This document shows, in pieces, positions 5,083 through 64,000 of a stretch of DNA of 64,000 bases. The position numbers and the translations under genes are program-made. The first letter of the stretch is position 1; each line of letters starts with the position of its first letter. The stretch is taken from contig JBEKQZ010000002.1 of NCBI GenBank assembly GCA_049519175.1, positions 134,782-198,781 on the forward strand, written 5' to 3'. Under the pieces are notes generated by a model. It did no database searches. It worked only from the letters and a program-made list of their open reading frames with translations, and had not been told where the DNA came from. This DNA is from Candidatus Levyibacteriota bacterium. Lineage in GTDB: Bacteria > Patescibacteriota > Microgenomatia > Levybacterales > UBA12049.

Positions 5083-5110
5083 CTTAAATTATTATTGCCT
5101 ACTTGAAGAC

Positions 5111-31917: not shown

Positions 31918-31920
31918 AAG

Positions 31921-35170: not shown

Positions 35171-35243
35171 CGCGTCTGTAGCTCAGTGGTAGAGCGGTTG
35201 TCTTATAAACAACAGGTTCCTTGGTTCGATCCCAAGCAGACGC
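35171..35243 (+). tRNA. tRNA-Ile(UAU) (AUA-decoding), by manual fold
   Basis: Acceptor GCGTCTG/CAGACGC perfect. D-arm GCTC-AGTGGTA-GAGC with G18G19 and A21. Anticodon stem GTTGT/ACAAC with loop CTTATAA (U33, anticodon TAT, A37). T-arm CTTGG-TTCGATC-CCAAG. Variable loop apparently 6 nt. Confidence 0.7.
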
Positions 35244-35244
35244 A

Positions 35245-37617
35245 CTAAAGTCTGGCGCGTTCGGCGATTTCCACTTCGAGGCTTTTCACTTCTTTCCCGT
35301 ATTTTAATCTGGATAATTCTCTGATTAATTCCGCCACCCGCGGGTTTTCCGCCGCCTGCTCTTTGGTCATATCACGGGTCAAATCCATCGAAAAAGGCGT
35401 CATCGGCTCGTTGTTCACGATTGTTTTAACATACGCGTTATAAACATCGACATTGATTAAATCTGCTTCCGTAAAAGTTGGTTGGAATTCATGTTGTAAA
35501 TAGTTGGCATCGGTGACGCCGACTCGAAACGAAACCAAGCTTCCGACGTTACCAAAAATCGCGTTTTTGACTTCCTCATCCATCTGACCGATAAACTGGT
35601 TAGCAACAATCAGATTAAGCCTGTATTTTCTCGCTTCCGACAAAATCTGGGCAAAATCGGGTGTCGCGAAATTTTGAAACTCGTCAACATAGAGATAGAA
35701 ATCGCGTCTCTTTTCTTCGGGAACATCCTGCCGACTCATCGCCGCCACTAAAATTTTCGGTACTAAAATTAAACCCAAGAAACTGGCATTTTCCTCGCCG
35801 ATTTTTCCTTTGGATAGAGACACCAAGAGAATTTTTCCCTCGTCCATGACTTTTCTAAAATCAAAGGCGGATTGCGACTGACCGATAATATTGCGCATCA
35901 TTTTATCGGTCACAAAACGGCCAAATTTGGAAACAATGTAGTCGAGAACTTCGGATTTATGGAAATCGTTGGTTTGCGCAATCTGATCGGTCCAATAGCG
36001 GCGGACAATCGGATCTTGGACTTTCGGCAAGAGCTCTTGGACAAAATTAGCATCAGTCAAAACGCGGACCACCTCGACAAAAGTGCTACCCTTCTCGCTC
36101 ATGACGGTTAACATGGCGTTTCTGATAGCATGCTCAAATCTTGGTCCGATAATACCGGTTTTATTCGGATCATAAAGTTTATACATCAACCCGACAATTG
36201 AGGAAACAATGTAGTGTTTTTCCTCTTCGGTTTGCGCCTCCAGCATATTTAAACCCATCGGCCGGTCTGTATCGCTTGGATCAAACAGAATGACGTCTTC
36301 GGCCCTTTCGGGTGGGATGAGGGGTAACAATTTATCGATGGTGTCATGCGGATCAATAAAGCAAACTCCCTCGCCATTTTTGATGTCCTGCAAAATCATG
36401 TCTTTTAAGAATTCCGACTTTCCGACACCGGTTTTTCCGACTACATACATGTGGCGTCTTCGATCATCTTTTTGGATATAAACCGGTTTGGCAATGCCTC
36501 TAAAAGTGCTCATGCCTAAATAAAGACCTGCGGTGGGAATTTGGGCCGGAGCCGGCGCTCTTTTGGCATTTAGCCAATGGATATGCGGTGTCGTCACGTT
36601 TTTGTTGGGAAAATGGAAAACGCTACCCAATTCTTCGCTGGTCAAAACCGCCATGCCACGGTTTGGCAAATAACGGTAGATAAAATCGCTGATAAAGTTT
36701 CCTTTAAGCCAAACTTTAGCTTTGGCAAAAGAGTTAATGCCGTTAAACTGGCCGAAAGCGCTAACCATATTTTCCAAATGCGCCTGCGCAGCTTCCTGCG
36801 AGCTGGAAGAAACGACTAGTCTAATAGTGGTATAGAAACCGGGCTTGGAAATTTTATTTTCAACTCCCTCCAATTCTTTCGGGTCGGCCGCATATTTTGC
36901 GGTTTCGGGATTTGCCTCCCGCTTTTTGGTAGAAGCGATGTATTTGCGGCCTAACTTGCTCCATTTTGACGGCGCGCCGGTAATTAAAACCTGAATCGCC
37001 GCCCCCTCGCCATGCCCCATTTTGGCCAACACCGAAGTAAGGGAGGATAAAGGGTCAACCGCAAAGTCTTTGTAAACTTTGAGTGGTTTGTAGTTTGAAT
37101 CTTTGAGTTTAAGTGACGCAAACGCTACTTTCCCCTCTTTGGAAAAAATATTATATTCATTGCCGATAATATAACCCTCTTTGGCGTTTCCTCTTGCCTC
37201 TTCGTCGACAATTTTTATTTCCGCATCCGGATACGAAGCGTTAATTTGTTTTTCGACGATGTCACGGTATTTGTTGGGGGCATAAACATAAAAACGGATA
37301 TCTTCCGACATCCCGACAATTTCAAACGAAAGATGCGGTTTGTATTTTAAAAAGGCAAATATTCCCGTCGCTTTAATGCCGGTGAAACTGGCAAAGAATT
37401 GTTCGGCGGCGTCAATTTTAATCTCGTTATCGCGCGGCAGCGTGACTTGAATTAAGGTCGAATCAAGCGATTTTTTCTCTCTGTCTTTATTGCCATACCA
37501 AATAATAAATAAGTAGCCAAAACCCAAAACTGCAGCGGCGATAACCAACAAAACAACTAAAGCTACGCATAAAACCGTGACTAGATTAAGAATATTTGGC
37601 AATGCAAAATTATACAT
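35245..37617 (-). CDS. membrane-anchored FtsK/HerA-superfamily ATPase, TraD/TraG/VirD4 (type IV coupling protein)-like
   Basis: 790 aa. N-terminal TM, Walker A VVGKTGVGKSEF, Walker B LYVDEFQNF, and a C-terminal SEARKYRLNLIVANQFIGQ block resembling T4CPs. Stop codon is 2 nt from the tRNA 3' end. Confidence 0.5.
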   Translation of the reverse strand: MYNFALPNILNLVTVLCVALVVLLVIAAAVLGFGYLFIIWYGNKDREKKSLDSTLIQVTLPRDNEIKIDAAEQFFASFTGIKATGIFAFLKYKPHLSFEIVGMSEDIRFYVYAPNKYRDIVEKQINASYPDAEIKIVDEEARGNAKEGYIIGNEYNIFSKEGKVAFASLKLKDSNYKPLKVYKDFAVDPLSSLTSVLAKMGHGEGAAIQVLITGAPSKWSKLGRKYIASTKKREANPETAKYAADPKELEGVENKISKPGFYTTIRLVVSSSSQEAAQAHLENMVSAFGQFNGINSFAKAKVWLKGNFISDFIYRYLPNRGMAVLTSEELGSVFHFPNKNVTTPHIHWLNAKRAPAPAQIPTAGLYLGMSTFRGIAKPVYIQKDDRRRHMYVVGKTGVGKSEFLKDMILQDIKNGEGVCFIDPHDTIDKLLPLIPPERAEDVILFDPSDTDRPMGLNMLEAQTEEEKHYIVSSIVGLMYKLYDPNKTGIIGPRFEHAIRNAMLTVMSEKGSTFVEVVRVLTDANFVQELLPKVQDPIVRRYWTDQIAQTNDFHKSEVLDYIVSKFGRFVTDKMMRNIIGQSQSAFDFRKVMDEGKILLVSLSKGKIGEENASFLGLILVPKILVAAMSRQDVPEEKRRDFYLYVDEFQNFATPDFAQILSEARKYRLNLIVANQFIGQMDEEVKNAIFGNVGSLVSFRVGVTDANYLQHEFQPTFTEADLINVDVYNAYVKTIVNNEPMTPFSMDLTRDMTKEQAAENPRVAELIRELSRLKYGKEVKSLEVEIAERARL

Positions 37618-50445: not shown

Positions 50446-52761
50446 ATGAAAATCTTGATTTCTTTGATTAACGCTATTATTTTGCTTTTAACCGCTATCG
50501 GCGATGCTGTGTTTTTCTGTCTAAAACTTGTCTTAAGAATAATTTTCACCCTACTCAAATTTATTCTTCGTTTGGTTGCCGCCATTTTCAGATTTGTCTT
50601 TAAAATAATCGGCATAAGCTTATCACGTAGCCAGGCGGCCAAAAGAAATATCAGTAATCAAATTAAATTGGCGCGCTTTAAGCTTCTACTGTCTGTCAAA
50701 AGACTAAAGCGCCAGTTTCGACCAAAGAAAAAAGCCAAACCGAGCAAGAAAAAAGTGGTCAAAGAAGCGGTCATTACCTTCTTCCCTGCGCCAAAACATT
50801 ATCGCCTGAAACTAAAATATTTTCTGGTTGGCTTTTTGTTCTGCGTTATTTTTGTGCTGATTCCCTTTGCGATGTATTCATTCTTAATGAGCCTACCCAA
50901 CCCTAAGCTTTTAACCGAAAGAGCCTTTCCGCAAACTACCAAAATTTTTGACCGCAATGGCACGCTGTTATACCAAATTTACGCCAATGAAAACCGCACT
51001 CTGGTGCCGTTAAACTCTATTCCGAAAAATTTGATTAACGCCACCATTGCGATTGAAGATAAAGATTTTTATACCAATCCGGGCTTTGACATTACCGGCA
51101 TTTTGCGGGCGGCTGTCGCCGATTTTTCCGGCCAGCCAATTCAGGGCGGCTCCAGCATTACCCAACAATTGATAAAATCAACGCTTTTGACTCCCGAAGT
51201 AAGTATTACCCGCAAGATTAAAGAGATTGTGCTGGCTTTTTGGGCGGAAAGAATTTACAGCAAAAACCAGATTTTGGAAATGTATTTTAATCAAGTTCCT
51301 TACGGCGGCACCGCTTGGGGGATTGAAGCGGCCTGTGAAACTTATTTTGGCAAAAATGTTAAAGATTTGGATTTGGCGCAAAGTGCTTTTTTGGCCGGCA
51401 TGCCCCAAGCTCCCACCACTTATTCTCCCTACGGTAACAACCCAACTCTTTGGAAACAACGTCAAAAAGAAGTGCTCGACAAAATGTTCCAGCTTGGTTA
51501 TATTTCGCAAAAACAGGATAATCAAGCTCTAAAAGAAACTCTGACTTTTCAGCCGCCGCAAATTCCCATTTACGCCCCGCATTTTGTAATGTATGTTAAA
51601 GATTTGCTGGTGCAAAGATATGGACTGGCCATGGTCGAAAAAGGCGGTTTGAATGTTACCACCAGTCTGGATTTAAACCTGCAGCAGGACGTTCAGCAAA
51701 TTGTCAGCGACGAAGTTAACAATGACGCTTATTTAAACCTGACTAATGGCGCTGCTTTGGTCACCAACCCTAGTAACGGTGACATTTTGGCGATGGTTGG
51801 CAGCGCAAACTACGATAACGCCAACGGCGGTAATGTTAATTTGACGACCGCCTTAAGACAGCCGGGCTCTTCAATCAAAGTGGTTACTTATGCCGCCGCT
51901 TTATCGGACGGTTTTACCGCCGCCAGCATTTTGGATGATTCCCCAATCACCTACAATATTCCCGGCTCAGCCCCTTATTCACCGGTCAATTATGATGGCA
52001 AATTTCACGGCAAAGTCCCTTTAAGGTTTGCTTTTGCTAATTCGTTTAATGTCCCGGCGGTTAAAACCCTGCAAAAAATCGGCATTCCGGCGATGGTTAG
52101 TATGGCCAAGCAAATGGGTATCACCACTTGGGGAGATCCAAGCCAATACGGACTGTCTTTAACTCTTGGTGCCGCCGAAGTCAAAATGACCGATATGGCC
52201 ACTGCTTATGGCACCGTTGCCAACCTTGGCAAAAAAGTGGATTTGGATCCGATTTTAAAAGTTTCCAATTATGACGGCAGTGTTTCTTACCAAAAACAAG
52301 CAGAGTTACCAAATCTAGTGCTTGACCCAGGCGTCGCCTATATTATTTCCAATATCTTGGCCGATAATAACGCGCGCTCTTTGGAATTTGGCTTAAATTC
52401 TCCCCTAAATATTCCTAATCACACTGTTTCGGTTAAAACCGGCACTTCGGATAATAAACGGGATAACTGGACGATCGGCTTTACGCCGCAGGATTTAGTG
52501 GCTGTTTGGGTTGGCAATAACGATAACTCACCGATGAGTCAAACGCTGGCTTCCGGCATTACCGGCGCGGCGCCAATCTGGAATAAAATTATGACTTTGC
52601 TTTTGGGCAATGCTTCCAACGCTCCGGAGCCGATACCCGACGATGTTGTGATGAAAAAATGTCAGGGAAGAAATGAATATTTTATTACAGGAACCGAAAA
52701 TACGTCCGATTGTAATTTTATCGCCACCCCCAGCGCAACGATGATACCACAAGCTAACTAA
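50446..52761 (+). CDS. class A penicillin-binding protein (second PBP1A paralog)
   Basis: 771 aa. Long basic N-terminal extension plus TM. GT51 motifs (EDKDFYTNPGFD), SSIKV and KTGTS. Confidence 0.85.
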   Translation: MKILISLINAIILLLTAIGDAVFFCLKLVLRIIFTLLKFILRLVAAIFRFVFKIIGISLSRSQAAKRNISNQIKLARFKLLLSVKRLKRQFRPKKKAKPSKKKVVKEAVITFFPAPKHYRLKLKYFLVGFLFCVIFVLIPFAMYSFLMSLPNPKLLTERAFPQTTKIFDRNGTLLYQIYANENRTLVPLNSIPKNLINATIAIEDKDFYTNPGFDITGILRAAVADFSGQPIQGGSSITQQLIKSTLLTPEVSITRKIKEIVLAFWAERIYSKNQILEMYFNQVPYGGTAWGIEAACETYFGKNVKDLDLAQSAFLAGMPQAPTTYSPYGNNPTLWKQRQKEVLDKMFQLGYISQKQDNQALKETLTFQPPQIPIYAPHFVMYVKDLLVQRYGLAMVEKGGLNVTTSLDLNLQQDVQQIVSDEVNNDAYLNLTNGAALVTNPSNGDILAMVGSANYDNANGGNVNLTTALRQPGSSIKVVTYAAALSDGFTAASILDDSPITYNIPGSAPYSPVNYDGKFHGKVPLRFAFANSFNVPAVKTLQKIGIPAMVSMAKQMGITTWGDPSQYGLSLTLGAAEVKMTDMATAYGTVANLGKKVDLDPILKVSNYDGSVSYQKQAELPNLVLDPGVAYIISNILADNNARSLEFGLNSPLNIPNHTVSVKTGTSDNKRDNWTIGFTPQDLVAVWVGNNDNSPMSQTLASGITGAAPIWNKIMTLLLGNASNAPEPIPDDVVMKKCQGRNEYFITGTENTSDCNFIATPSATMIPQAN

Positions 52762-53389
52762 CCAGATTGGTCAGTTTTTCGAAGGAGTTGAGAGGATCTT
52801 CGCTTTGAAAAATAAAACTGTCTGCCACAAATCTATTGGTGCCCGACACTCTTGCGGCAATGATCGACTCGTCGGTTATTCCCCCATCTATTTCTAGCGG
52901 AACAATTGTCTTTTCTCTCAACTCTTTTACTTTCAATAGTGAACTTTGTGAAAAAGCTTGACCGGATTTACCTGCTTTAACAGCCATTATGAGGATTGCG
53001 TCGATATCATCGAACGGAATTGATAAAGAACTTACCGGCGTATCGATGTCCAATGCCAACCCGACTTCGCCGCAGATTTCTCCTTCAGCAATAAATTCAT
53101 TGATGTCTTCCATTTTTTCGATGTGTCCCAAAAATCGTCTAAAACCAACCGCTGCCAACTGTCGGATATATTGTGTCGGATTTTCCGTCATTAAATGCGC
53201 TTCCAAATAAAAATCATCTTTGTATTTTGCAAAGGCATTAAAATCCACAAAGGAAGTTTCTTCACAAAATTTTCCGTCCAAAAAATCAATGTGCACTACT
53301 TTGGAAAAAGGGCGGATGATTGCCAACTTTCTTTCAATCTCTTGCCAGTCTTTTTCCAAAATTCCAGGTATGACATTATGCATAATCAA
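52754..53389 (-). CDS. rpe: ribulose-phosphate 3-epimerase-like
   Basis: 211 aa TIM-barrel-like. HIDFLDGKF and EIDGGI motifs resemble Rpe. Adjacent to rpiB. Confidence 0.6.
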   Translation of the reverse strand: MIMHNVIPGILEKDWQEIERKLAIIRPFSKVVHIDFLDGKFCEETSFVDFNAFAKYKDDFYLEAHLMTENPTQYIRQLAAVGFRRFLGHIEKMEDINEFIAEGEICGEVGLALDIDTPVSSLSIPFDDIDAILIMAVKAGKSGQAFSQSSLLKVKELREKTIVPLEIDGGITDESIIAARVSGTNRFVADSFIFQSEDPLNSFEKLTNLVS

Positions 53390-53460
53390 ATAATTTTTAA
53401 TTGCTCTAATTGACCTAATTGCTAAACTTTTTAGGTTAATTAGAAATTAGAATAATTAGG

Positions 53461-53910
53461 TTAATTTTCTTGTTCAATTTTACTTATTTCGCTTATCCTC
53501 CTAATGTGTCTTGGATCGTTGGAAAACGGCGTTTTTAAGAAAATCTTGACTAATTCTTTCGCCTTTGCAAAGTCTTCAAACGCTGCTCCCAAAGATAAAA
53601 CATTAGCGTTATTATGCTGTCTTGAGAGCCCTACATTCTCTGTAGAAAAACCTAACACTGCCCGGACATTTTTAAATTTATTAGCAACTATTTCCTCCCC
53701 CGCTCCGGACTTACCAAAAATAATTCCAAAAGCAGTTGGATCACTTTCAATCGCTTCCCCAACTTTTTTTATGAAATTTGGATAATCGTCAGTTGGATTT
53801 ATAGAGAAAGCGCCACAATCTACCACTGTATAATTTTGTTGTTGCAGATATTTTTTAATTTCTTCTTTTAAGTTAAATCCAGCGTGATCCGTTGCTAAAT
53901 ATACTTTCAT
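53461..53910 (-). CDS. rpiB: ribose-5-phosphate isomerase B
   Basis: 149 aa. MKVYLATDHAGFNLKEEIK N-terminus typical of RpiB/LacAB. Confidence 0.85.
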   Translation of the reverse strand: MKVYLATDHAGFNLKEEIKKYLQQQNYTVVDCGAFSINPTDDYPNFIKKVGEAIESDPTAFGIIFGKSGAGEEIVANKFKNVRAVLGFSTENVGLSRQHNNANVLSLGAAFEDFAKAKELVKIFLKTPFSNDPRHIRRISEISKIEQEN

Positions 53911-53951
53911 AATCTTTCCAGTTTAGAAATTAGAAATTAGAAATTTCTAGC

Positions 53952-54509
53952 CTACTGTCCTATTATAACCAAAGCGTCAGAGGAAAAACTATCCGGCAGG
54001 TCGGAAGTTGCGTTTCCGATTGTATAACTAAAACCTAAATCTTTTTTCAACAGGTTTAAGAAATCGCTTTTGCCCGCCTTTACCTGAATGGTCACATTCG
54101 TATAATTAAAATTATCGGCATTACCGGTTGCTACCACATTGTAACCAACGCCTTTTAGAACGTCCGCCGCTTTTACCGCCACGCCGGCTGTGCCGCTACC
54201 ATTTTGTACGGTGACGGAAATCTGACTTCTATCCAGTCCCGAATCTTTATCAACCGGATTGACGGTTGGAGTTAGCGTCACTCCTGGAGTAGTGGACAAA
54301 GCAACTGTTGGTGTAGGAGTATCGGTCGGAGAGACCACAATTGGAGTTGGTGTTGGCGTTGGGGAACTTTTATACGAACTCACGGCCCTAAATCCCAAGA
54401 ACAAAAGAATTACTACGACAATTGTCAGAATTAAATAAACGGGCCACTTTTTCGTGTTCCTTCTTTGCGGAGTAAAGGTGGGAATTGCTTCCAATGGCGT
54501 TTCTTCCAT
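53952..54509 (-). CDS. LytR_C domain-containing membrane protein
   Basis: 185 aa. TM helix, Pro/Thr-rich linker and a C-terminal LytR_C-like domain (VTVQNGSGTAGVAVKAADVLKGVGYNV). Confidence 0.55.
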   Translation of the reverse strand: MEETPLEAIPTFTPQRRNTKKWPVYLILTIVVVILLFLGFRAVSSYKSSPTPTPTPIVVSPTDTPTPTVALSTTPGVTLTPTVNPVDKDSGLDRSQISVTVQNGSGTAGVAVKAADVLKGVGYNVVATGNADNFNYTNVTIQVKAGKSDFLNLLKKDLGFSYTIGNATSDLPDSFSSDALVIIGQ

Positions 54510-54594
54510 ACACTACCTTTCGACGCAAGGATAGCACACTTTTTTTGGTTTTGCAATCCGAAAAAGCAGTCTGTCTGTTATAATAAATTGTGCG

Positions 54595-56355
54595 ATGAAA
54601 AAACTGCTTTTTTTACTGTTTCTGATAATTTTTACTAGCGTTGGAATCGCGCTTCTCCCTTCCTCAATTGCCCAAAGCGTTAATTGTAACAATCTTACCG
54701 ATGCTCAATGCACGGCGGAAGGCAACACTCTCTGCTTAGCCGATACGAATACCTGCATGGACCAACTGGCCGCTGCCAGACAACAATCGGTTAATGCCAC
54801 CATTCCACTGGAAACCGAAATTAACAGCATGCAAGCAAGAATTGCTTTTATTCAAGCCAGTCTTATCACCAAGAAAAATGACATTGACAACGGATATGCC
54901 AACTTGGCCAAACAACAGCAAATTTTAAATGCCACCATCCGCGATTATTACATAAAATCTTATTATGATTCCCCGCTTTTACTTTTATTGTCAGCCAATT
55001 CAGCTAGTGAATTTACGCAAATTTTGGGCTATCAAAAATCCAATGCCGACCGCGACAAAGCCATTATTACTAACATTGCCATTACCATTAATGATTTAAA
55101 AAATGAAAAAGCCGCGCTGGAAAGTGAAGAAACCAGTATTGCTGCTACTAAAGCCAAGCTTGACGTCATCGTGGCCGGAGCAATTGCGTATCAACAAACT
55201 CTCACCAATCAAATTGCGGCGCTTAACTCAATCCAACAAAGTATTTTAAGTGCTAGGTTAGCCGGACTAAACATTCCTTTATATGCCAGCACCGCCGGCG
55301 GTTGCTCCAGCGATATCGGCAAAAGCCCGGGCTTTAGCGGCGGGTTTGGATTTTTCACTTACGGAGTTCCTAACAGGGTTGGCTTAAACCAATATGGAGC
55401 TTACGGCCGGGCCAATGCCGGACAAAACTCCGATACTATCCTTCACGCCTATTACAATTTTGATGGTTATCAAAATATCAGCGGCGTTAATATCAACGTT
55501 AATGATGGGAATGGAGTTGGTACGGGAAACGTTATTTGGAGCGGAAGCTTGGAAGATTATGTCAAAAGAATTTATGAGGTCCCGGACAACTGGCCGAGTG
55601 AAGCTTTAAAAGCCCAGGCGATTGCGGTGCGTTCTTATGTTTTGGCGGCAACCAATAATGGCGCCAACTCAATTTGCGCTAATCAAAATTGTCAGGTTTT
55701 TCAAACTAACGATAAAGGCGGCAACTGGGATCAGGCGGTTAATACCACCTCTGGACAAGTAATGATTCAGGGCGGACAACCGATTAAAGCCTGGTTCTCT
55801 TCGACACACGGCGGCTATGTGCATTCCTCCGGTGACATCGGCTGGTCCGATACTGCCTGGACAAAAAATGCGCAGGACACATCTTCCAGTGTCGGTAGTT
55901 TTTCCGACTTAAAAAGTAATGCTTACGATAAAGATTCGCCCTGGTTTTATTGCGATTGGGGTTCAAGAAGCAGCAATAATAATACCGCCTGGCTTAACTC
56001 AAGTGAGGTTGCTGATATCGTTAATGTCTTGATGCTGGCACAAAAGGATTCCAGCACCGTCAACCATCTTTACCAAACAGATAAAAACACCAATCCAAAT
56101 CCCGCCGGAACCGACACTTGGAGCGCAGACCAAGTTAAGCAGGAATTGCAAAATCGAGGCGTCACACCCTACAACAACGTCAGCAACGTTTCTATTTCGG
56201 CAGATTTTGGTTCTGGGAAAGTAACCAATGTTTCTGTATCCGGAGACGGCGGCAATAATAGCTTTTCCGGCAATGATTTTAAAAACTATTTTAACTTAAG
56301 AGCTCCTGCTAATATCCAGATTGTCGGACCGTTGTATAATGTAGAGACAGAATAG
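54595..56355 (+). CDS. secreted SpoIID/LytB-domain protein with N-terminal coiled coil
   Basis: 586 aa. Signal peptide, coiled-coil region of about 230 aa, then SpoIID/LytB signatures (EALKAQAIAVRSYVL, CANQNCQVF, WFSSTHGGYV). Confidence 0.65.
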   Translation: MKKLLFLLFLIIFTSVGIALLPSSIAQSVNCNNLTDAQCTAEGNTLCLADTNTCMDQLAAARQQSVNATIPLETEINSMQARIAFIQASLITKKNDIDNGYANLAKQQQILNATIRDYYIKSYYDSPLLLLLSANSASEFTQILGYQKSNADRDKAIITNIAITINDLKNEKAALESEETSIAATKAKLDVIVAGAIAYQQTLTNQIAALNSIQQSILSARLAGLNIPLYASTAGGCSSDIGKSPGFSGGFGFFTYGVPNRVGLNQYGAYGRANAGQNSDTILHAYYNFDGYQNISGVNINVNDGNGVGTGNVIWSGSLEDYVKRIYEVPDNWPSEALKAQAIAVRSYVLAATNNGANSICANQNCQVFQTNDKGGNWDQAVNTTSGQVMIQGGQPIKAWFSSTHGGYVHSSGDIGWSDTAWTKNAQDTSSSVGSFSDLKSNAYDKDSPWFYCDWGSRSSNNNTAWLNSSEVADIVNVLMLAQKDSSTVNHLYQTDKNTNPNPAGTDTWSADQVKQELQNRGVTPYNNVSNVSISADFGSGKVTNVSVSGDGGNNSFSGNDFKNYFNLRAPANIQIVGPLYNVETE

Positions 56356-56356
56356 T

Positions 56357-57037
56357 ATGCCGGACATTTTTATCGCCGAGCCAAAAGCGGAAAGCATTAT
56401 TCCCGACCAACCTTACTCTCTGCAAAAACAAGAAGGGTCAGCCACCCCCCTGCCGATTAACCAACCACTTACCCTCCCTAAAAATACCGTTGGTTTATTT
56501 TCTTCTTTTTGCAAGGCTCCGGATGGAGTATCTTTTCAAACGCAAGAAGAAGGAGAAAAAATACTGCTTTTTTTAAGGCGTGATTTTGCAACCAACATCA
56601 AATGGATATTGATAAGTATAATTTTATTAGTGATTCCTGTCCTCTTGCCTTTTGTTGGAAAATTTTTCGGCAATCCTTTTCCATTTCTTTCGCTTAAATT
56701 TTATCTTGCATCAATAGTTTTTTATTATCTGGTTGTTGCCACCTATCTTTATATAAATTTTATGACCTGGTATTACAATGTTGCCTTAATCACCGACCGC
56801 CGGGTCATTGATGTCGATTTTTCAAATTTGGTCTACAAAGATGTTGCCACCACCAAATTAAGCCTTGTGCAAGATTTAAGTTATGCCAAAGTAGGGGTCA
56901 TCAGAGCCTTTTTTGATTACGGCGACATCCTCATCCAAACTGCCGGGTCTTTGGATAATTTTAATTTCGAATCTGCGCCGGATCCGGAAGAAGTAGTCCA
57001 TATAATCGAAGAATTGATTGGAAAACAAAATGTATAA
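56357..57037 (+). CDS. membrane protein with bacterial PH (YdbT-like) domain
   Basis: 226 aa. Two TM helices followed by a bPH_2-like segment. Confidence 0.4.
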   Translation: MPDIFIAEPKAESIIPDQPYSLQKQEGSATPLPINQPLTLPKNTVGLFSSFCKAPDGVSFQTQEEGEKILLFLRRDFATNIKWILISIILLVIPVLLPFVGKFFGNPFPFLSLKFYLASIVFYYLVVATYLYINFMTWYYNVALITDRRVIDVDFSNLVYKDVATTKLSLVQDLSYAKVGVIRAFFDYGDILIQTAGSLDNFNFESAPDPEEVVHIIEELIGKQNV

Positions 57038-57263
57038 TTTTTCAAATCTTTTACAAACACCGCAAATAAACATTCTCTTCAAGATTGGTTTTCTGATTGC
57101 AAACTTTATCTTTATAATCTTTTTGATCGTTGTTATTAGAGAAGTACGCACTATGAGCACAATTGTCAGTAATAACAACAACACCTCAACAATAAAATCG
57201 GCAATTCTATTACTTTTTATTGTTGCAGTTTCGCTTTTCTTGACAGCTCTTGTTATACTATAG
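57018..57263 (+). CDS. small membrane protein, hypothetical
   Basis: 81 aa with two TM helices. Confidence 0.35.
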   Translation: MENKMYNFSNLLQTPQINILFKIGFLIANFIFIIFLIVVIREVRTMSTIVSNNNNTSTIKSAILLLFIVAVSLFLTALVIL

Positions 57264-57266
57264 CTG

Positions 57267-59057
57267 ATGGCTGAAGCAACTTTGACCTTTGCAAAAATTG
57301 TCGCTAACCCCAGTGCTTTCTCCTGGTCGCAAGTCTATAGCGCCGGAAAACTTTTCGCCGTTATTTCCCTGGAAGCACAGGAAGAAAACCTGGAAAAAGA
57401 TTTTCTGAATGTTTTAGGCAAAGAGATTTTAAACACCCTTGAACAGGAATTTTTTACGCTGGAAACCAAAGATTTGGCATCAATTAAAACGGCTGTTTTG
57501 ACTACTTCGAAAAAGATTCCAACCGAAATAAACTGCTCGTTTGTCATTGCGGCTTTAACCAATAATATTCTGTATTTATATATTTTGGGTAACGGACGTG
57601 CTTCTTTAAAACGGGAGGGTAAACTTGGCAATTTAATTGAAGCGGCTGACCAAAAATCCGACGCGATCAAGGAAGCTTCCGGTTATTTACAGGATAACGA
57701 CATTATTGTTTTGCAAACCAAGCAGTTTACCGACGTTATTTCGGTCGGCACTTTGTCGGAATTTATGGATAACTTACCGCCCAGTGAAATCGCCGAAAAT
57801 TTAGCGCCCTTGGTGCATGAAAAAGAAGAAGCCGGGGCCGCCGCAATTATCGCCCACTACAAAGCACCAAGCGCTGAAGAAGCTGCCGAAGCTGTCCCCG
57901 AACAAGAACCGGAAATTGAAGCCAAAACCGTGGAAGACGAACAAAATTCCAGCGAATCACCGTTTTATTCCCCAACCGTTACCCGCAGAACTAGTTTGTT
58001 GGACAAAATTAGCCCCTTAACTTCTTCTTTATTTTCCAAGTTCAAACGCCCGCAAGATTTAGGCTTAAATCACTCCCGCAAAGTAATTTTAACCATTGTG
58101 GTAATTATTTTGGTGGTGTTTGTTGGTAGCGTCTTTTTCGCCCTGAATAAACAGGCCGCCGAAAAAACGCAAACTGCTTTTCAAGCCGTTTACCCGCAAG
58201 CTTTAAAACAATATAATGAGGGAGAGAGCTTACTGGAGTTAAATCAGAATTTAGCCCGTGATAGTTTCCAACAAGCCCAGCAGCTTTTAAATAGCGGTAA
58301 AGATAAATTACCCAAAAATTCCCCGCAGGAAAAACAAGTTCTGGATTTATTAAATAAAGTCAATACGGCTCTTAATACCTCTTCTGGAGTCACTAATGCG
58401 GCCGCTACGGCGGTCTCAAGCAATACCAGCCAATACCTCTTGGCCGAAAGCAAAAACGACGGTTTATATTTTGCCGAGGACGATAATCACATTTACGAGT
58501 TAACGCAAACCCAAGTTTATACTTTTAATCCTGACGGCAGCAACCAAAAGTCAATTATTACCAACAGCGGTGACTGGAAACAGCCGGGCGGACTTTCCAC
58601 TTACAACGGCAACATTTATATTTTAGACAAAAGCCAAAACCAGATCTTAAAGTATGTCAGTTCCGATTCGGGTTTTGTCAAAGCCAATTATTTTTCAACC
58701 ATTAACCCCGATTTATCCAAAGCCGTTTCCATCGCCATTGACAGCTCGATTTATGTTTTGACTTCAGATGGCAACATCAGTAAATTTACCAAAGGCGCTG
58801 CCGACACTTTTACCATTGCCGGCTTGGATACCGCACTTAATAACCCTACGCGGATTTATACCAATTTAAACGACAATAATGTCTATGTTTTGGACAACGG
58901 CAACTCAAGAATTGTCGTTTTTGACAAAAGCGGCAACTATAAAAACCAATATCAGGCGGGAGTTCTGAAAACAGCCAAAGATTTTGAAGTGCTGGAACAG
59001 GACAAAAAAATCTACGTTCTCTCCGGCGGTAAGACTTACGAAATTGATTTGAAATAA
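57267..59057 (+). CDS. hypothetical membrane protein with C-terminal beta-propeller-like repeats
   Basis: 596 aa. Cytoplasmic N-terminal domain, acidic linker, single TM. C-terminal region has repeated hhYVLD motifs (IYILDKSQN, IYVLTSDGN, VYVLDNGNS, IYVLSGGKT). Confidence 0.45.
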   Translation: MAEATLTFAKIVANPSAFSWSQVYSAGKLFAVISLEAQEENLEKDFLNVLGKEILNTLEQEFFTLETKDLASIKTAVLTTSKKIPTEINCSFVIAALTNNILYLYILGNGRASLKREGKLGNLIEAADQKSDAIKEASGYLQDNDIIVLQTKQFTDVISVGTLSEFMDNLPPSEIAENLAPLVHEKEEAGAAAIIAHYKAPSAEEAAEAVPEQEPEIEAKTVEDEQNSSESPFYSPTVTRRTSLLDKISPLTSSLFSKFKRPQDLGLNHSRKVILTIVVIILVVFVGSVFFALNKQAAEKTQTAFQAVYPQALKQYNEGESLLELNQNLARDSFQQAQQLLNSGKDKLPKNSPQEKQVLDLLNKVNTALNTSSGVTNAAATAVSSNTSQYLLAESKNDGLYFAEDDNHIYELTQTQVYTFNPDGSNQKSIITNSGDWKQPGGLSTYNGNIYILDKSQNQILKYVSSDSGFVKANYFSTINPDLSKAVSIAIDSSIYVLTSDGNISKFTKGAADTFTIAGLDTALNNPTRIYTNLNDNNVYVLDNGNSRIVVFDKSGNYKNQYQAGVLKTAKDFEVLEQDKKIYVLSGGKTYEIDLK

Positions 59058-59102
59058 CTCTTTTCAAATTTACTTTCTCCTTTTTTTGAAGTATCATACT
59101 GA

Positions 59103-59543
59103 GTGAAACGAACTATGAAAATTACCAATAAAAAAGCCTATTTTGATTATCGGATTTTGGAGACCTTTGAAGCGGGAATAAATTTGTATGGCTCGGAAGT
59201 TAAAGCGGTAAGACTAGGCAGAGCCGATTTAACCGGCAGTTTTGTCAAAATTATCGGTAGCGAGGCCTATTTGGTTAACGCCAACATTTTCCCCTACCAA
59301 AGCGGGCAAGTTGAAAATTATGACGCGCAAAGAACCAGAAAACTGTTATTGCATAAACAAGAAATAATTGCTTTAAAATCCAAAACCGACGGCGCCAACT
59401 TAGCTCTCGTTCCAATCGCTTTATACTTTAAGCATGGGTTTCTAAAATTGGAGATTGGTCTTGGTAAAGGTAAAAAACAATACGAGAAGCGCGCAGCGAT
59501 TAAAAAACGGGATATTAAAAGAAGCCTCGAACAAGAGCTCTAA
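59103..59543 (+). CDS. smpB: SsrA-binding protein
   Basis: 146 aa. KKAYFDYRILETFEAGINLYGSEVKAVR signature of SmpB. Confidence 0.9.
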   Translation: MKRTMKITNKKAYFDYRILETFEAGINLYGSEVKAVRLGRADLTGSFVKIIGSEAYLVNANIFPYQSGQVENYDAQRTRKLLLHKQEIIALKSKTDGANLALVPIALYFKHGFLKLEIGLGKGKKQYEKRAAIKKRDIKRSLEQEL

Positions 59544-59545
59544 AG

Positions 59546-59574
59546 TTGACTTTTTAGGCCGAAAAGTATATAAT
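59546..59574 (+). promoter_or_regulatory. sigma70-type promoter for ssrA (TTGACT-17-TATAAT)
   Basis: -35 TTGACT at 59546-59551, 17-bp spacer, -10 TATAAT at 59569-59574. tmRNA 5' GGGG begins at 59585. Confidence 0.55.
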
Positions 59575-59584
59575 TCTTGTCACT

Positions 59585-59940
59585 GGGGATGCAATTGCAT
59601 CGACAGGATTCGCACTTTAAAAACTGCAAGCCGGCCATGACTAAAGCCGTAAAACTAGTCAAAAATTAAATGCTAGAAGCAATTCTGCATTTCAACCAAA
59701 TTACGCATTCGCTTAATTTGAATTGATGTTCACTAAGTCTTTTCTCAATGGGACTTTTTGAGCAAAAACACAGTTGAGAAATTAATAAGGAAGTTGATTA
59801 GTTCCTTATCGAATTTATAATCTCGGTGATATTTATTCCCTTCTATTGGAAAAGAATATCGCGACTTTTAAAAGTAGAATAAGCTTGTAGAAGTTATTAA
59901 AATGTTTTCTTGGACTCGAGTTCATTGCTCGACATCTCCA
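59585..59940 (+). ncRNA. ssrA: tmRNA (transfer-messenger RNA)
   Basis: Immediately downstream of smpB. The 5' GGGGATG pairs with the 3' CATCTCC acceptor, then discriminator A. T-arm TCGAG-TTCATTG-CTCGA. Internal reading frame (59672-59716) ...ARSNSAFQPNYAFA-TAA resembles degradation tags (..YALAA). Confidence 0.75.
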
Positions 59941-61441
59941 CACTACCTTTTTTTGAGGCTGAAACCTCATTGATTAGCTTGATAGGATAAGCTAATCCAG
60001 CGGTTCCAAACCCATTTTTATAGTCGTACCTCAATTGATCCTCAAAATACATAAAAAGTATCGTCCTTTTGTCATTGTATTCATCGCTTTTCCACATGGA
60101 CATAGGGTCTTTTAACGTGTTTAAAACTTTATCTGATGCGGTTCCAAATTCTTCATTAGTATATTTTCGTTTGTTTAAATTCTCATCGCCTAGTTTCTTT
60201 TTCGATCTTAAATCTTTTATCTTCTCTTCGTAGGTCGCTATTAAATCTTCGTCCTTTGTTTTACTTATTCTCACAAGATAAGACTGAATGGCTATGTCTG
60301 CCTCCTCAGCCTCTGCTGCAATTCTGTCTCGCCATGCGGTATAGTTATCAAGCCTAATTCCCCATTGCTCTTTTAATACATCCTTTGTTAAATCAACCGT
60401 GTCGGCTGCTGGCTTAACTCTGATTAACAGTTCTTCAAATTTTGCCTCAAACTCTTTTTTGCCCGTCGTCTTCCAGTTATAGATACAACCTTTTGTCCTA
60501 CAGAAATAGTGAGGGTATCGTGTGCCTTTTCTTCCCGTACACCAACTTGCTGTCATAGGCTTGGTGCAAGCATCGCAAAGTACGTGCGGACGAAGCGGAA
60601 AAGTATCGGCATAATCTCTTCGTTTCCATGGCTTTGTACGCTCTTGTACACGCTTCTGAACTAGGTTATACGTCTCAAGCGACAGGAAACCCTCATGCCT
60701 TGCTTTCATGAAAGGAATATCCCATTTTTTGTATTCGATATAGCCTGCGTATAACGGCTCCTGCAGTATTCTTTGCGTTGTGCTCATAGATGGTCTGTTA
60801 GGAAGTCCTTTTGCTTTGTATTCTGCGTGTAAAAAACGCATTACCTCTTCTTGCGTAATGAGCAACCCGTCTCTATATTTCTCGATTGCTATCTTATAAA
60901 TAGAAGCATACGGCTCCCTCGGAGTAAGAATTTTGCCGTGGATAGGATCTTTTTTATTTATCATGCCAAGTGGTGGCATAAAAGGCCAGTAACCTTTCTC
61001 AAGTCTTGCTTTCATTTTTTGAATTACCTGCCTTCGATTACTTTTCCTCTGATATTGATTGCTAACAGCGATCATCAACTCTGCCATTTCGCTTTCATCA
61101 CTATCATCGAAGTTAAAATTGAGACATTCCCGTTTTACTCCTCTTGATTGAAACTCTGCTGTTAACTGAATATGTACTTTTACGTCCCTTGCAAAACGAG
61201 ACAAATCATCAAAGATAACTACGTAGTTTTCATGAGAGTGATCATCTATGTAACTAAGTAAGGCGTGCATGGCCGGCCTTTCAAAAAGACTTCCGGATAC
61301 AGCTTCATCAGGGAATACCTTTACAACTTCATAATCTTTGTTTTTGGCATACATTCGACATCGTTGTTCTTGTGATCCCAAACCGTTTCCCTCGTCAACT
61401 TGACGCTGTGATGAAACCCGACAATAAATTAGTGCTTTCAT
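59897..61441 (-). CDS. large serine recombinase (site-specific integrase)
   Basis: 514 aa. Resolvase catalytic domain YCRVSSQRQ...GLGSQE, recombinase domain and Cys-rich zinc ribbon. C-terminal 44 nt overlap the 3' end of ssrA. Confidence 0.85.
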   Translation of the reverse strand: MKALIYCRVSSQRQVDEGNGLGSQEQRCRMYAKNKDYEVVKVFPDEAVSGSLFERPAMHALLSYIDDHSHENYVVIFDDLSRFARDVKVHIQLTAEFQSRGVKRECLNFNFDDSDESEMAELMIAVSNQYQRKSNRRQVIQKMKARLEKGYWPFMPPLGMINKKDPIHGKILTPREPYASIYKIAIEKYRDGLLITQEEVMRFLHAEYKAKGLPNRPSMSTTQRILQEPLYAGYIEYKKWDIPFMKARHEGFLSLETYNLVQKRVQERTKPWKRRDYADTFPLRPHVLCDACTKPMTASWCTGRKGTRYPHYFCRTKGCIYNWKTTGKKEFEAKFEELLIRVKPAADTVDLTKDVLKEQWGIRLDNYTAWRDRIAAEAEEADIAIQSYLVRISKTKDEDLIATYEEKIKDLRSKKKLGDENLNKRKYTNEEFGTASDKVLNTLKDPMSMWKSDEYNDKRTILFMYFEDQLRYDYKNGFGTAGLAYPIKLINEVSASKKGSVEMSSNELESKKTF

Positions 61442-61444
61442 AAT

Positions 61445-61660
61445 TTAATTTAAATCGCTTTTTTCAACAACTGCATCTATAGTCTTATTGCAAATAAGGC
61501 GTAGCATATTTAAGAGATCTAAGACTTGTTGATCTGTCATACTGTCTCCTCTTCTGCCTAACTTTTCTCTTGCCATCTCAATTGTAATCGTTTTAGCTTC
61601 CATCTTCAAATAAAAACTCCCGTCTCGGGTGGAGTCCCTAACAGGAGCTTTTATCTCCAC
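61445..61660 (-). CDS. small hypothetical protein (71 aa), translationally coupled to recombinase
   Basis: Ends 4 nt before the recombinase start codon. No motif recognised. Confidence 0.35.
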   Translation of the reverse strand: MEIKAPVRDSTRDGSFYLKMEAKTITIEMAREKLGRRGDSMTDQQVLDLLNMLRLICNKTIDAVVEKSDLN

Positions 61661-61678
61661 CCGAATCGTTAAAATTCC

Positions 61679-62122
61679 TTACGTATTTGCCACGTTCATC
61701 ATGCCTATCCCTATTCGTTGATCAATCGTGCCGATGTTGAGGTTTGCTTTGGAGTTTTCGGCTGAGTAGAGGTCCAGCCTTAGCTTGAATAAGTCCTTTT
61801 CGATTTCCCATGAGAGCTGAATCATCCGGAGAATGGCAGATACAGGACGGTCGTAGTAGAATCGTTGTTTTGTTTCCGCATCAAGCTCTTCAAGCCTAAT
61901 TAAATATTCCCTTGCTCGTTCTTGCATTCGCCAAATTTCCGTTCGTAGTGATTGCTGATCAATCTTTGCAAGCTGTTCTTCTCGAACTTCATCTAACCAT
62001 TTTCTTATTGTTGGTCTTGAAACTCCGAAAAGTTCACACATTCTCGTCTGAGTAACTTTAGGCTGGGTAGTGACAAGGGCCCTCATCTGCAATTTCAATA
62101 TTTTTTTACCTGTTTTTTCCAT
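61679..62122 (-). CDS. HTH-domain protein (possible regulator or terminase-small-subunit-like)
   Basis: 147 aa. N-terminal HTH RMCELFGVSRPTIRKWLDE and a coiled-coil C-terminus. Confidence 0.45.
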   Translation of the reverse strand: MEKTGKKILKLQMRALVTTQPKVTQTRMCELFGVSRPTIRKWLDEVREEQLAKIDQQSLRTEIWRMQERAREYLIRLEELDAETKQRFYYDRPVSAILRMIQLSWEIEKDLFKLRLDLYSAENSKANLNIGTIDQRIGIGMMNVANT

Positions 62123-62172
62123 TTGTTATTTTGTAAAGTTTTGTAAAGTATTTCACCTTAAAACCACAAAAA

Positions 62173-62212
62173 AAGCGCAGACCCTTTGCAGGTTGCGCTT
62201 GTCTTTTTTAGA
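62173..62212. terminator. bidirectional rho-independent terminator
   Basis: Stem AGCGCAGACC / GGTTGCGCT with loop CTTTGCA. Flanked by an A-run upstream and TGTCTTTTTT downstream, so it works on both strands. Lies between convergent or adjacent island genes. Confidence 0.6.
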
Positions 62213-62406
62213 CTTCGGCTTTTTCTATATTACCAAGCCTATTTTAATTGTCAAGTTTTGAAGATATTGGAAGCTAGTTAAAGAAAGTGTGTAAATAAAA
62301 GGTACATCAACCTAAATGCACCAATAGTAACCCATAAGGTAGGTGCAATTAAGAAAACATAAAGAATAATTGTAATAAATAGTTTTTTCACAAACACATT
62401 TATAAA

Positions 62407-62895
62407 TTATTGGCACCCCATTAAAACTGGAGGGGTAAACAAACAATACATTACCCTTTGAGAACTACCCGGTATACCGCAAATATAGGGCTGGGGGGAT
62501 AGATTCCCTATGTTTGGAAGAGGATTACATAAATATGGCGTTTGTCCTGGTGGTCCACAAAATAGAGTGTGTTCTCCGTTTATTAGTGGACCGGGAGCAT
62601 TTAAGCAACCCATTACTTTATTAGAAGTCTGTGGAGCTGGAGGAACAGGAGTGGCTGTTGGGAGAATGGTAGGCGTTGGTGTATCTGTTGGAGCTTCTGT
62701 CGGAATGGAAAATGTCGGCACGGGCGATACGGATGCGTTATATTGTATCCCCAGAAAAGCATTACTAGGTTTCCATAGTAAAACAACGATAGCTACAGAA
62801 AATATTCCTAAAACAATAATCGCATTACGTACTAATTTGTCGTTTCCCTCTACTGTCTTTTCTTCCGTCTTTATACCTTTTTTCTTTTTCATCAA
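62407..62895 (-). CDS. membrane-anchored Pro/Thr-rich protein with C-terminal Cys-rich domain
   Basis: 162 aa. Basic N-terminus, TM, PTDTPTPT linker and a C-terminal domain with 8 Cys. Confidence 0.4.
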   Translation of the reverse strand: MMKKKKGIKTEEKTVEGNDKLVRNAIIVLGIFSVAIVVLLWKPSNAFLGIQYNASVSPVPTFSIPTEAPTDTPTPTILPTATPVPPAPQTSNKVMGCLNAPGPLINGEHTLFCGPPGQTPYLCNPLPNIGNLSPQPYICGIPGSSQRVMYCLFTPPVLMGCQ

Positions 62896-63155
62896 AAAGC
62901 CCTCCGCCAGCGAAGCCTTTCGACTCCTACCGCCCTTTCGGACGATAACTTTAGAGGTGCTCTGACGAAGAGCTTAATACCTCTAAAGTTTTTTAGCCAT
63001 GCTCACATTGCTGCAAGTTTAGGCAATTAACGCTAGTATAGCACACCAAAATTTATAGTAAATTCACCTCTCATAACATATAATTAGACCGTGGTGCTAA
63101 TGAAAAACATTCTTATCCTAGAAGACAATCTTATTGTTTTGTCTAAATATTTGGT

Positions 63156-63665
63156 ATGGCAATATTAGTTGACAAAAGTTTATTAAAGACAGCTTGTTTA
63201 AAAAATGCAAAAAAGCTACTAAGAGAGTCTAAAAGATTGCTTAACCAAAAAAAGTATGCGTGGTCAACTTTCTTGGCAATAACTTCTTTTGAAGAAAGTC
63301 AAAAATTAGGACTTCTAAGCATGTATGAAGGTAATTTTATATCTGAATCTGAGTTTAGAAAATATTGGCATAGTCATGAATATAAAATAAGGTCGAAGGG
63401 TGCTCGTCTACGATTCACGTTTAATATAAATAAGAAAAAACCTGAGATAGTTTTAGGATCAAAAGAGGAGGCTCAGGAAGTAATAAGGATTAGGGGAGAT
63501 TGTCTTTATGTGGATTTTAATGATATATCAATCTCAGAACCTCTAAGCATTAATATTGCAGTTGCCGTACAATATATAAACGAGGCTAATATGGAATTAA
63601 ATTCAGCTATTTCTTTAGAGCTGTTAGAAAAGAAATTAAAAAGAGCTTTTAAAGTCAAACAATAA
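63156..63665 (+). CDS. hypothetical protein with HEPN-like R-x5-H motif (AbiV-like abortive-infection candidate)
   Basis: 169 aa, AT-rich codon usage. Helical N-terminus with RKYWHSH (Rx4-6H spacing). First gene of a tightly spaced pair. Confidence 0.3.
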   Translation: MAILVDKSLLKTACLKNAKKLLRESKRLLNQKKYAWSTFLAITSFEESQKLGLLSMYEGNFISESEFRKYWHSHEYKIRSKGARLRFTFNINKKKPEIVLGSKEEAQEVIRIRGDCLYVDFNDISISEPLSINIAVAVQYINEANMELNSAISLELLEKKLKRAFKVKQ

Positions 63666-63670
63666 TAACT

Positions 63671-64000
63671 ATGAATAAAGACCAGTTAAGCTTAACAAAA
63701 GCAAAATTTCCCACTCTCTTTTCTTTTTCCCAGGACTATGAAGGAAAGGACAAGAATGATATTAGACAATATTTTAGAGATAAGCCCACTTTAATTCTAG
63801 GTGAGGGTTATTGGTTAAAATATGAACGTGCATTACAACTTTTACCAGTAGAAGACAAAAACCATCTACTCAATAAGCTTAAAACCCTAACAAAAAAACT
63901 TAGTGAACAAGAGGGATGGCCTCATTTTGAAGAGAAATTAAATGAAGCATTAGTTTACGAGTATCTTCAAAAAGAGGGATATAGGAAAATTAAATTTATT
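63671..64000 (+). CDS. hypothetical protein, partial (runs off window end)
   Basis: ATG at 63671, 5 nt after the previous stop. Open for at least 110 codons (MNKDQLSLTKAKFPTLFSFSQDYEGKDKNDIRQYF...). AT-rich. Confidence 0.35.
   Translation, partial: MNKDQLSLTKAKFPTLFSFSQDYEGKDKNDIRQYFRDKPTLILGEGYWLKYERALQLLPVEDKNHLLNKLKTLTKKLSEQEGWPHFEEKLNEALVYEYLQKEGYRKIKFI

Follow-up and report, generated by a model that had tools for sequence, protein, structure and literature searches.

Why a recombinase gene should end inside the gene for a transfer-messenger RNA (tmRNA) is the question raised by one end of a 64,000-nucleotide stretch of the Candidatus Levyibacteriota contig JBEKQZ010000002.1, the whole of which is referred to here as the window. 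On the forward strand lies ssrA, the tmRNA gene of the host (59585-59943), and on the opposite strand a 514-amino-acid (aa) open reading frame (ORF) for a large serine recombinase (LSR; 59897-61441, minus strand) runs into its 3' end. The answer developed below, held with considerable confidence, is that the region holds a small site-specific element in its integrated state, inserted at the end of ssrA by the LSR that it encodes, in which the attachment site of the circular form (attP) falls within the recombinase ORF, with the C-terminus of the enzyme swapped on integration. The recombinase ORF overlaps ssrA, in other words, because attP sits within the recombinase gene.

The insertion at the 3' end of ssrA

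The tmRNA gene matches the Rfam family RF00023 over its full length (97.8 bits, E 6e-37) and encodes a plausible tag peptide, ARSNSAFQPNYAFA, followed by a stop. ARAGORN gave no call at 59585-59943 despite this match, and tmRNAs of the candidate phyla radiation (CPR) may be under-annotated by standard pipelines, hiding such insertions from island finders based on tRNA and tmRNA genes. The stop codon of the LSR (59897-59899) is located inside the T-arm, the overlap between the two genes amounting to 47 nt in Rfam coordinates or to 45 nt when counted to the discriminator base, and codons 501-514 of the recombinase (VEMSSNELESKKTF), its last 14, are antisense to the T-arm and the acceptor stem of the tmRNA. 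The initial annotation of the window had described a recombinase ORF of this length ending within the T-arm and acceptor region, and had assigned to it resolvase, recombinase and zinc-ribbon domains, all of which is upheld.

The 514-aa ORF is a large serine recombinase both by sequence and by fold. A Resolvase domain (PF00239, residues 3-151, 1.5e-23) includes the YCRVSS motif with the catalytic serine, S10, which is invariant across 51 homologs, and is accompanied by a Recombinase domain (PF07508, 5.5e-5) and by a match to PHROG integrases (7e-64). The zinc ribbon (PF13408) is weak in the window copy (E=0.2) and significant in the homolog P0073 (1.9e-7), and it is backed by the fold and by four cysteines (C289, C292, C314 and C319) that are likewise invariant across 51 homologs. 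An AlphaFold2 model of the homolog P0002, which is 76% identical to the window protein, has a mean predicted local distance difference test score (pLDDT) of 86.6, with a beta-ribbon at residues 287-327 and helices at 346-394 and 398-422, and Foldseek aligned this model at full length to solved large serine integrases with attachment-site DNA (9dxh, E 1e-17; Bxb1, 9iu2; PhiC31; 4kis). A sequence search of the PDB with the recombinase returned relatives of the catalytic domain only, the full architecture having come from the fold search. The ORF in the window is intact, with all of the catalytic and cysteine residues conserved.

Related genomes were fetched with a SmpB query, the closest being metagenome-assembled genomes of Microgenomates/Gottesmanbacteria type within the CPR. 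Three of these relatives (L004, L006 and L007) lack the insertion, and in each the gene for a ComF-like phosphoribosyltransferase directly follows ssrA. The other boundary of the element lies past the end of the window, as first surmised, and an exact look-up of the recombinase sequence provided the extension, an 18.5-kb contig (L001) that is 100% identical to window positions 52573-64000 and continues for 7 kb more. In the window genome, so extended, the ComF gene is found about 6.2 kb from ssrA and the terminator on its side about 6.1 kb from ssrA, and the hairpin of the terminator downstream of ssrA in L004 (AAAAAACCCTGACTTATTGTTCAGGGTTTTTT) is homologous to the hairpin beside ComF in the window genome. 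The far boundary is placed at L001 position 4994, equivalent to window positions 66057-66061 and about 2.06 kb beyond the last base of the window. In L005 the same place is taken by an independent insertion of about 6.9 kb, with a recombinase that is 42% identical, likewise overlapping ssrA, and with different cargo; the same anatomy recurs in L086, in L088/L089 and in those metagenome loci where a far-end tail is present. Among the relatives the 3' end of ssrA is polymorphic, empty in the three genomes named above and occupied in the window genome, L005, L086, L088 and other tmRNA-overlapping loci.

The base composition of the region had been described as dropping from about position 62200 onward. 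The island does fall below its surroundings, with a G+C fraction of 0.367 vs 0.416 +/- 0.012 in 6-kb windows across the remainder of the window (about 4 standard deviations below), but the sustained drop, to 0.30-0.32, starts near 63000 rather than 62200; the recombinase module itself is host-like at 0.40, and the low G+C is concentrated around the abortive-infection gene described below. Empty and occupied sites among relatives, the position of the ComF-side terminator and the composition of the island together show an inserted foreign element at the 3' end of ssrA, as was originally proposed. The element proper is about 5.3 kb long, and with an adjacent integrase-less, single-gene cassette of 0.78 kb the total comes to about 6.1 kb.

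The site of exchange was narrowed by aligning 16 attachment sites, four of them attB sequences from empty sites, three attP, four attL and five attR. GTGGA, in the sense of the recombinase gene, is the sole block common to all four classes, and in the window it corresponds to TCCAC at 59937-59941 (attL), covering the last part of the acceptor stem together with the discriminator. At the sixth base attB and attL, on the tmRNA side, have G, and attP and attR, on the tail side, have C; the LSR-coding arm is common to attP and attL, and the tail arm to attP and attR. On this alignment the crossover must lie within the 5-bp TCCAC core. The predicted attP of the window element, in the sense of the tmRNA, is GATATTTCGTCAATG-TCCAC-ACTACCTTTTTTTGAGG, with an inner variant ...CTATG-TCCAC, and the predicted attB is ...TTGCTCGACATC-TCCAC-TTGCGGTTCAAAAC. 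The mature tmRNA is wholly host-derived up to the core, and with the crossover confined to these 5 bp it is unchanged; integration has moved nothing of ssrA but the trailer and the terminator, by about 6 kb.

A direct repeat of 20-45 nt from the end of ssrA had been expected downstream. No displaced ssrA 3' fragment of this kind, the Islander-type signature, was found by a repeat search of 11 kb downstream, where only the 5-bp core recurs. The far-end motif ATGTCCAC, present at the far end of both the window and the L005 islands, agrees with the tmRNA terminus ATCTCCAC at 8 of 9 positions, core included. Long direct repeats are a signature of islands inserted by tyrosine integrases, and since serine recombinases require only a short common core, the missing ssrA repeat does not refute insertion.

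A C-terminal tail encoded at the far end

When the recombinase ORF of the window is joined at the core to the DNA of the far end, the frame continues to 530 aa and ends in ...KKGSVDIDEISWKRIEEYIFKWYPILQGMNIASL, and the equivalent join in L005 yields 549 aa with a similar peptide, VDMSGSIWKQLTEYIWRWSAIL. The ORF of the circular form, as reconstructed, is 530 aa in length, with a conserved terminal helix ...SV-DIDEISWKRIEEYIFKWYPILQGMNIASL. The same operation was carried out on 15 integrated loci with a far-end tail, where elements measured 3.7-9.0 kb, and 17 of 17 joins proved to be in frame and open, adding 7-31 aa. Both far-end copies of the tail in the window island (see below) are intact and in frame, and conservation of far-end tails extends about 66 nt from the core. 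Among 22 distinct tails the pairwise identity at the three codon positions is 0.69/0.71/0.49, the third position being the most variable (permutation p=0.0012), and the Trp and Tyr codons are invariant; this combination shows that the tail is maintained as coding sequence.

A database search with the reconstructed protein gave 1944 matches at E<=1e-20 among the candidates scored, and the best 120 were classified by their tails. About 100 of these end in VEM(S/P)G.EP.SE-type tails, the antisense of the tmRNA 3' end (97 by regular expression plus 4 VEM variants), and another five in tails resembling antisense tRNA. Eight retain the intact VD..SWN.IE.YI.KWYP.L tail expected of the attP form, all on short contigs. 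Two contigs, L083 (4.2 kb, with a terminal overlap of 55 nt) and L084 (10.8 kb, with 127 nt), are self-closing, carry no tmRNA and have the ORF intact; their terminal overlaps are direct and of assembler k-mer length, and they assemble as circles with attP intact within the ORF. In the AlphaFold2 model the core-encoded residues fall in a low-confidence linker (496-506) and the part that is swapped is a single terminal helix (506-530). Comparison of the two forms indicates that integration swaps the C-terminus, the conserved helix of about 30 aa on the circle vs about 14 aa of antisense tmRNA on the chromosome.

These observations make the following course of events the most probable. The LSR inserted the circular element at the extreme 3' end of ssrA by crossover inside TCCAC. 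With attP situated in codons for a flexible linker, integration moves the tail-coding segment to the far end (attR) and fuses the ORF to 13 antisense codons of the acceptor stem and T-arm, giving the 514-aa protein, and excision restores the protein of 530 aa. The full-length enzyme of the circle is presumably the integration-proficient form, and the truncated chromosomal form, facing convergent ssrA transcription, may have altered or reduced activity that stabilises the integrated state. Transcription of ssrA, with its own terminator displaced, may run antisense into the recombinase gene, and excision is probably helped by a conserved small ORF upstream of the recombinase, acting as an accessory or directionality factor. 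In its most far-reaching version, which is put forward only tentatively, the C-terminal swap would be a built-in sensor of the integration state that sets directionality or stability; the full-length enzyme of the circle would integrate, and the chromosomal form, deprived of the tail helix and opposed by read-through from ssrA, would be either dependent on the small ORF or locked. The window element would then belong to a very large, undescribed CPR clade of serine integrases at tRNA and tmRNA genes, and the core-plus-tail segments would gather integrase-less cassettes at ssrA in the manner of integrons.

It is also possible, if doubtful, that the element is as described and that the ORF reaches across attP simply as a by-product of compact packing, the tail being dispensable and the swap without regulatory effect. 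Such an account fits the variability of the tails in the integrated form, which range from 11 to 52 aa beyond the core valine and are set by the tmRNA sequence alone, as well as the low-to-modest confidence with which the tail helix is modelled and its predicted connection through a disordered linker, and McMurdie et al. offered the same 'trivial explanation' for dsiB (PMC3146451), the counterpart gene in Dehalococcoides islands. It accommodates less readily the 17 of 17 joins that are open and in frame and that end soon after the conserved motif. The excess of change at third positions and the invariant Trp and Tyr indicate selection on the peptide, and conservation to about 66 nt from the core continues well past a typical attP half-site.

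Several considerations weigh against the interpretation of the locus as a mobile element with a functional C-terminal swap. The pLDDT of the tail helix, whose role in recombinase activity is putative, is 38-70, a modest confidence only. Part of the nucleotide conservation of the tail near the core could reflect recognition of an attP half-site rather than protein function. The 5-bp core leaves more than one position for the cut dinucleotide, and is compatible with the 2-bp staggered crossover and short attachment sites of serine integrases. An exact search of metagenome contigs for the attP junction of the window element itself found no match, leaving its current mobility unproven, and no gene for replication, for transfer or for a known directionality factor was identified in the element. 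The 'circular' contigs L083 and L084 could in principle represent tandem identical copies, as tandem arrays do exist in the family (L153).

Cassettes, cargo and family breadth

The core and tail occur twice in the window island, at L001 positions 4994-5121 and 5772-5899, as 128-nt segments that are 88% identical and 778 bp apart, their similarity beginning exactly at the core. Between them are one 178-aa gene and then a hairpin with a run of T. The same tail-gene-tail layout is found in L085, around a 105-aa gene, and in L108, around an amidase-like gene, the genes being unrelated. Another arrangement is seen in L153 (355-7182), where two complete elements stand in tandem at ssrA and the ORF of the distal recombinase continues through a core into the tail segment of the proximal element, which gives this chromosomal recombinase an intact-type C-terminus. 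The tandem layout matches sequential insertion beside the tmRNA arm, that is, accretion, and the sequences imply that the tail-gene-tail units are integrase-less, single-gene cassettes bounded by core-plus-tail sites. Integrase-less units that accrete at attachment sites are familiar from cis-mobilizable elements and from the cassettes of integrons, and the single-gene units lying beside an integrase-bearing element in the window, L085 and L108 resemble both; they differ in that each has a core together with a segment coding for the recombinase tail.

These duplicated segments bear on whether the window copy is instead a fixed, immobile remnant, its recombinase decaying or domesticated and the 0.78-kb unit with the second tail the debris of an older insertion. 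The two copies of the tail, separated by 778 bp and 88% identical, could be read in that way, and the metagenome scan without an attP junction of the window element and the identical element-plus-ssrA sequence in at least two samples (L001 and L002) would both suit an element that no longer moves. The state of its parts makes this unlikely: the ORF is intact with its catalytic and cysteine residues conserved, both far-end tails remain intact and in frame, close relatives are found as attP-type junctions or circles, and the tail-gene-tail arrangement beside an intact ORF in L085, and also in L108, suggests accretion of cassettes rather than decay.

A metagenome scan with the family alignment gave 79 loci, among them 65 with a complete recombinase ORF. 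Thirty of the 65 overlap a tmRNA 3' end in antisense and 29 a tRNA 3' end (Ala 17, Leu 6, Tyr 2, Thr 2, Ile 1, Arg 1), and with 59 of 65 ORFs so placed the overlap in the window is therefore not due to chance; the tmRNA calls in the subset of loci tested were upheld by Rfam. Targeting of tmRNA dominates at identities of at least about 44% to the window LSR, and tRNA targeting among more distant members, such as L118-L167 (36-43% identity), which lie antisense to genes for tRNAs of the six kinds listed. The acceptor end ...CTCCACCA is common to tRNA-Ala and tmRNA. Far-end tails of the tRNA-targeting sister clade were sought by joining at every candidate core, and the recurrent 'tails' so obtained were rejected, being conserved genes whose similarity extends to either side of the core. 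The recombinase family as a whole is large and belongs mainly to the CPR/Patescibacteria (Microgenomates-type), and a literature search of incomplete coverage found no description of it.

The breadth of the survey also informs the view that the family consists mainly of small plasmids that replicate as circles and are only occasionally parked in ssrA. Closed circles of 4.2 and 10.8 kb assembled from metagenomes, which imply a reasonable copy number, and the 8 of 120 homologs in the attP form lend it some substance, but among the 120 closest homologs about 100 have the integrated form, as do 59 of the 65 ORFs from metagenomes, and the gene lists of the circles contain no replication initiator by Pfam; this view of the family is judged improbable.

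The remaining genes of the window element comprise the rest of the recombinase operon and a set of cargo genes, and all of the neighbours named in the initial annotation are present: a small ORF 3 nt upstream of the recombinase, a helix-turn-helix (HTH) protein, a hairpin, a Cys-rich ORF and an AT-rich gene pair. The small ORF (61445-61660, minus strand) is listed at 71 aa, with the conserved part at residues 18-69 or thereabouts, and ends 3 nt before the LSR start. It has tblastn matches in 28 family loci, each directly upstream of the LSR, and no match in Pfam, PHROG or PADLOC, and we infer that it is a candidate accessory or directionality factor. The HTH protein (61679-62122, minus strand; 147 aa) is the first gene of the operon formed with the small ORF and the recombinase; it has weak matches to Pfam HTH_28/HTH_23 and weakly resembles the HTH of terminase small subunits in PHROGs, and relatives of it occur in L094, L107 and L110. 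Upstream of this operon is an intergenic control region (62170-62254) in which a G+C-rich hairpin at about 62170-62212, between runs of A and T, and a putative promoter on the minus strand at 62254-62227 (TTGACA-16-TAATAT, with TG) were read from the sequence, the hairpin being placed between the promoter-like site and the start of the HTH gene. The hairpin, which was seen by eye, could terminate transcription in both directions, including read-through from ssrA antisense to the recombinase operon; the first terminator-like site downstream of ssrA in a pattern scan of the plus strand is at 62493.

Cargo begins with a Cys-rich protein of 162 aa from the ORF list (62407-62895, minus strand) with an N-terminal membrane or signal segment, directly 5' of which is a LOOT RNA (62912-63025, minus strand; Rfam RF03000, 81 bits). 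The AT-rich pair consists of an AbiV-type HEPN protein for abortive-infection defence (63156-63665, plus strand; Pfam HEPN_AbiV 1.6e-15, PADLOC AbiV 2.8e-8) and the 5' part of a 257-aa ORF, also from the ORF list, that runs off the window (63671-64000, plus strand). Beyond the window, L001 continues with a 219-aa ORF, the inner core and tail (5772), the 178-aa cassette gene, the outer core and tail (4994), the host flank, the terminator and ComF. The proteins of 162, 178, 219 and 257 aa have no match in PADLOC, Pfam or PHROGs. Cargo varies within the family: where the window has AbiV, L084 has a restriction-modification-type set of two C5 methyltransferases, Vsr and an HNH protein, and L088 a Gp49/HTH pair that is toxin-antitoxin-like. 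The 4.2-kb circular relative has a tRNA-like gene of 90 nt (L083 3916-4005, plus strand; Rfam tRNA family, 57.7 bits). The LOOT RNA is found in five independent elements (the window, L005 12851-12965, L088 9285-9400, L106 2977-3100 and L108 5202-5312) and in none of the host flanking DNA examined. In the three inspected (window, L005 and L088) a small ORF follows closely on its 3' side, with a product that looks secreted or membrane-associated in the window and L005. The RNA could act as a cis-regulatory leader or be a small RNA borne by the element; the main text of the paper retrieved for it does not discuss it.

A prophage or phage satellite with a phage-type serine integrase is very improbable, although the PHROG integrase match (7e-64), the weak likeness of the HTH protein to terminase small subunits and the standing of ssrA as a classic prophage site hint at one. 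The element is only about 6 kb long, is without genes for capsid, tail, portal, large terminase or lysis (Pfam, PHROGs, PADLOC) and itself carries an anti-phage AbiV gene, and its recombinase found no match in a scan of viral contigs. It is a 5-6 kb unit of integrase plus cargo with neither phage structural nor conjugation genes, and neither a prophage nor an SCCmec-like island.

On the host side, smpB (59103-59543, plus strand; Pfam SmpB 1.3e-50) precedes ssrA and lies outside the element. The same element and ssrA, identical in sequence, are found on L002 (European Nucleotide Archive ERZ27249792), which diverges from the window at 59541. To the left of this point, at L002 3155-3274, the C-terminus of an rve-type transposase resembling those of insertion sequences (...YNTKRFHRSLGYKTPGEYV...) takes the place of smpB, which rules out the divergence as an attP or alternative junction; it is an insertion sequence, or an assembly join, between smpB and ssrA. 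The transposase sequence has no copy in the window. Introns are reported to be frequent in Patescibacteria, and a group I intron (RF00028, 56.2 bits) is located at window positions 32820-33012 (plus strand), about 0.8 kb from a tRNA-Met gene (31920-31994, minus strand); a tRNA-Ile gene with anticodon TAT is at 35172-35245 (plus strand).

Precedents and significance

Islands at ssrA are a textbook phenomenon. The basic finding is not new in kind, the closest precedent being the ssrA islands of Dehalococcoides, reported in 2011, which encode a CcrB-like serine recombinase, DsiB, with the 3' end of dsiB always overlapping attL (McMurdie et al. 2011, PMC3146451). In that system DsiB was speculated to be fully functional only on the circle, islands occur in tandem with some lacking an integrase, and an embedded tRNA-like gene is reported among the island modules (PMC3146451). 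The two systems share an LSR at the 3' end of ssrA, an ORF that crosses attL into ssrA, and tandem arrays or accretion. They differ in the site, since Dehalococcoides islands insert in the T-loop with a 20-bp ssrA repeat and the window element has a 5-bp core at the acceptor terminus, and in the module, which in Dehalococcoides includes a second, small serine recombinase (DsiA), ParB and a Mom-like protein, whereas the partner in the window family is a non-recombinase ORF of about 50-70 aa. No second Resolvase-domain gene is present in the window element, where the ORFs upstream of the recombinase are the 71-aa protein of no known family and the HTH protein. A conserved tail encoded at the far end characterizes the window family, and none is reported for Dehalococcoides. 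The hosts are also distant, Dehalococcoides belonging to the Chloroflexi and having larger islands with rdhA cargo, in contrast to the CPR host of the window.

In domain plan the window recombinase resembles the LSRs of phages (A118/LI, TP901-1, Bxb1 and PhiC31), with resolvase, recombinase and zinc-ribbon/coiled-coil parts, Foldseek E-values of 1e-17 to 5e-11, a short core and simple attachment sites, but sequence identity to them is only about 15%. Phage LSRs have an intergenic attP and mostly protein-coding targets, and their directionality is governed by a separate recombination directionality factor. An attP within the integrase ORF is known from IntP/IntX of the myxophage Mx8 (Tojo et al. 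1996, cited in PMC4383910) and from SSV1, in which integration into tRNA genes alters (Mx8) or splits (SSV1) the C-terminus. Those enzymes, from a phage and an archaeal virus respectively, are in contrast tyrosine recombinases, with other chemistry and longer blocks of identity, and as of 2014 no serine recombinase was known to have tRNA genes as its target (PMC4383910). The tycheposons of Prochlorococcus are small cargo elements at tRNA and tmRNA genes, a minority of which (27 of 937) carry an LSR (bioRxiv 10.1101/2020.12.28.424599). Most tycheposons differ from the window family in using tyrosine recombinases, and genes for replication are present in many; the text consulted does not describe an ORF across attP.

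The locus opens a large and apparently undescribed family of elements in the CPR/Patescibacteria, 4-9 kb in size and with sister clades at tRNA genes. Its sequences give direct evidence that the recombinase encoded on the circular form is longer, with a conserved terminal helix that is lost on integration. Serine integrases are heavily used as tools for genome engineering, and they are usually taken to need a separate directionality factor. If the C-terminal swap does control activity, it would constitute a simple, enzyme-encoded control of directionality for these integrases. CPR bacteria are very hard to manipulate genetically, and for them the family would offer natural integration tools, with a defined target, a 5-bp core in a universal gene.

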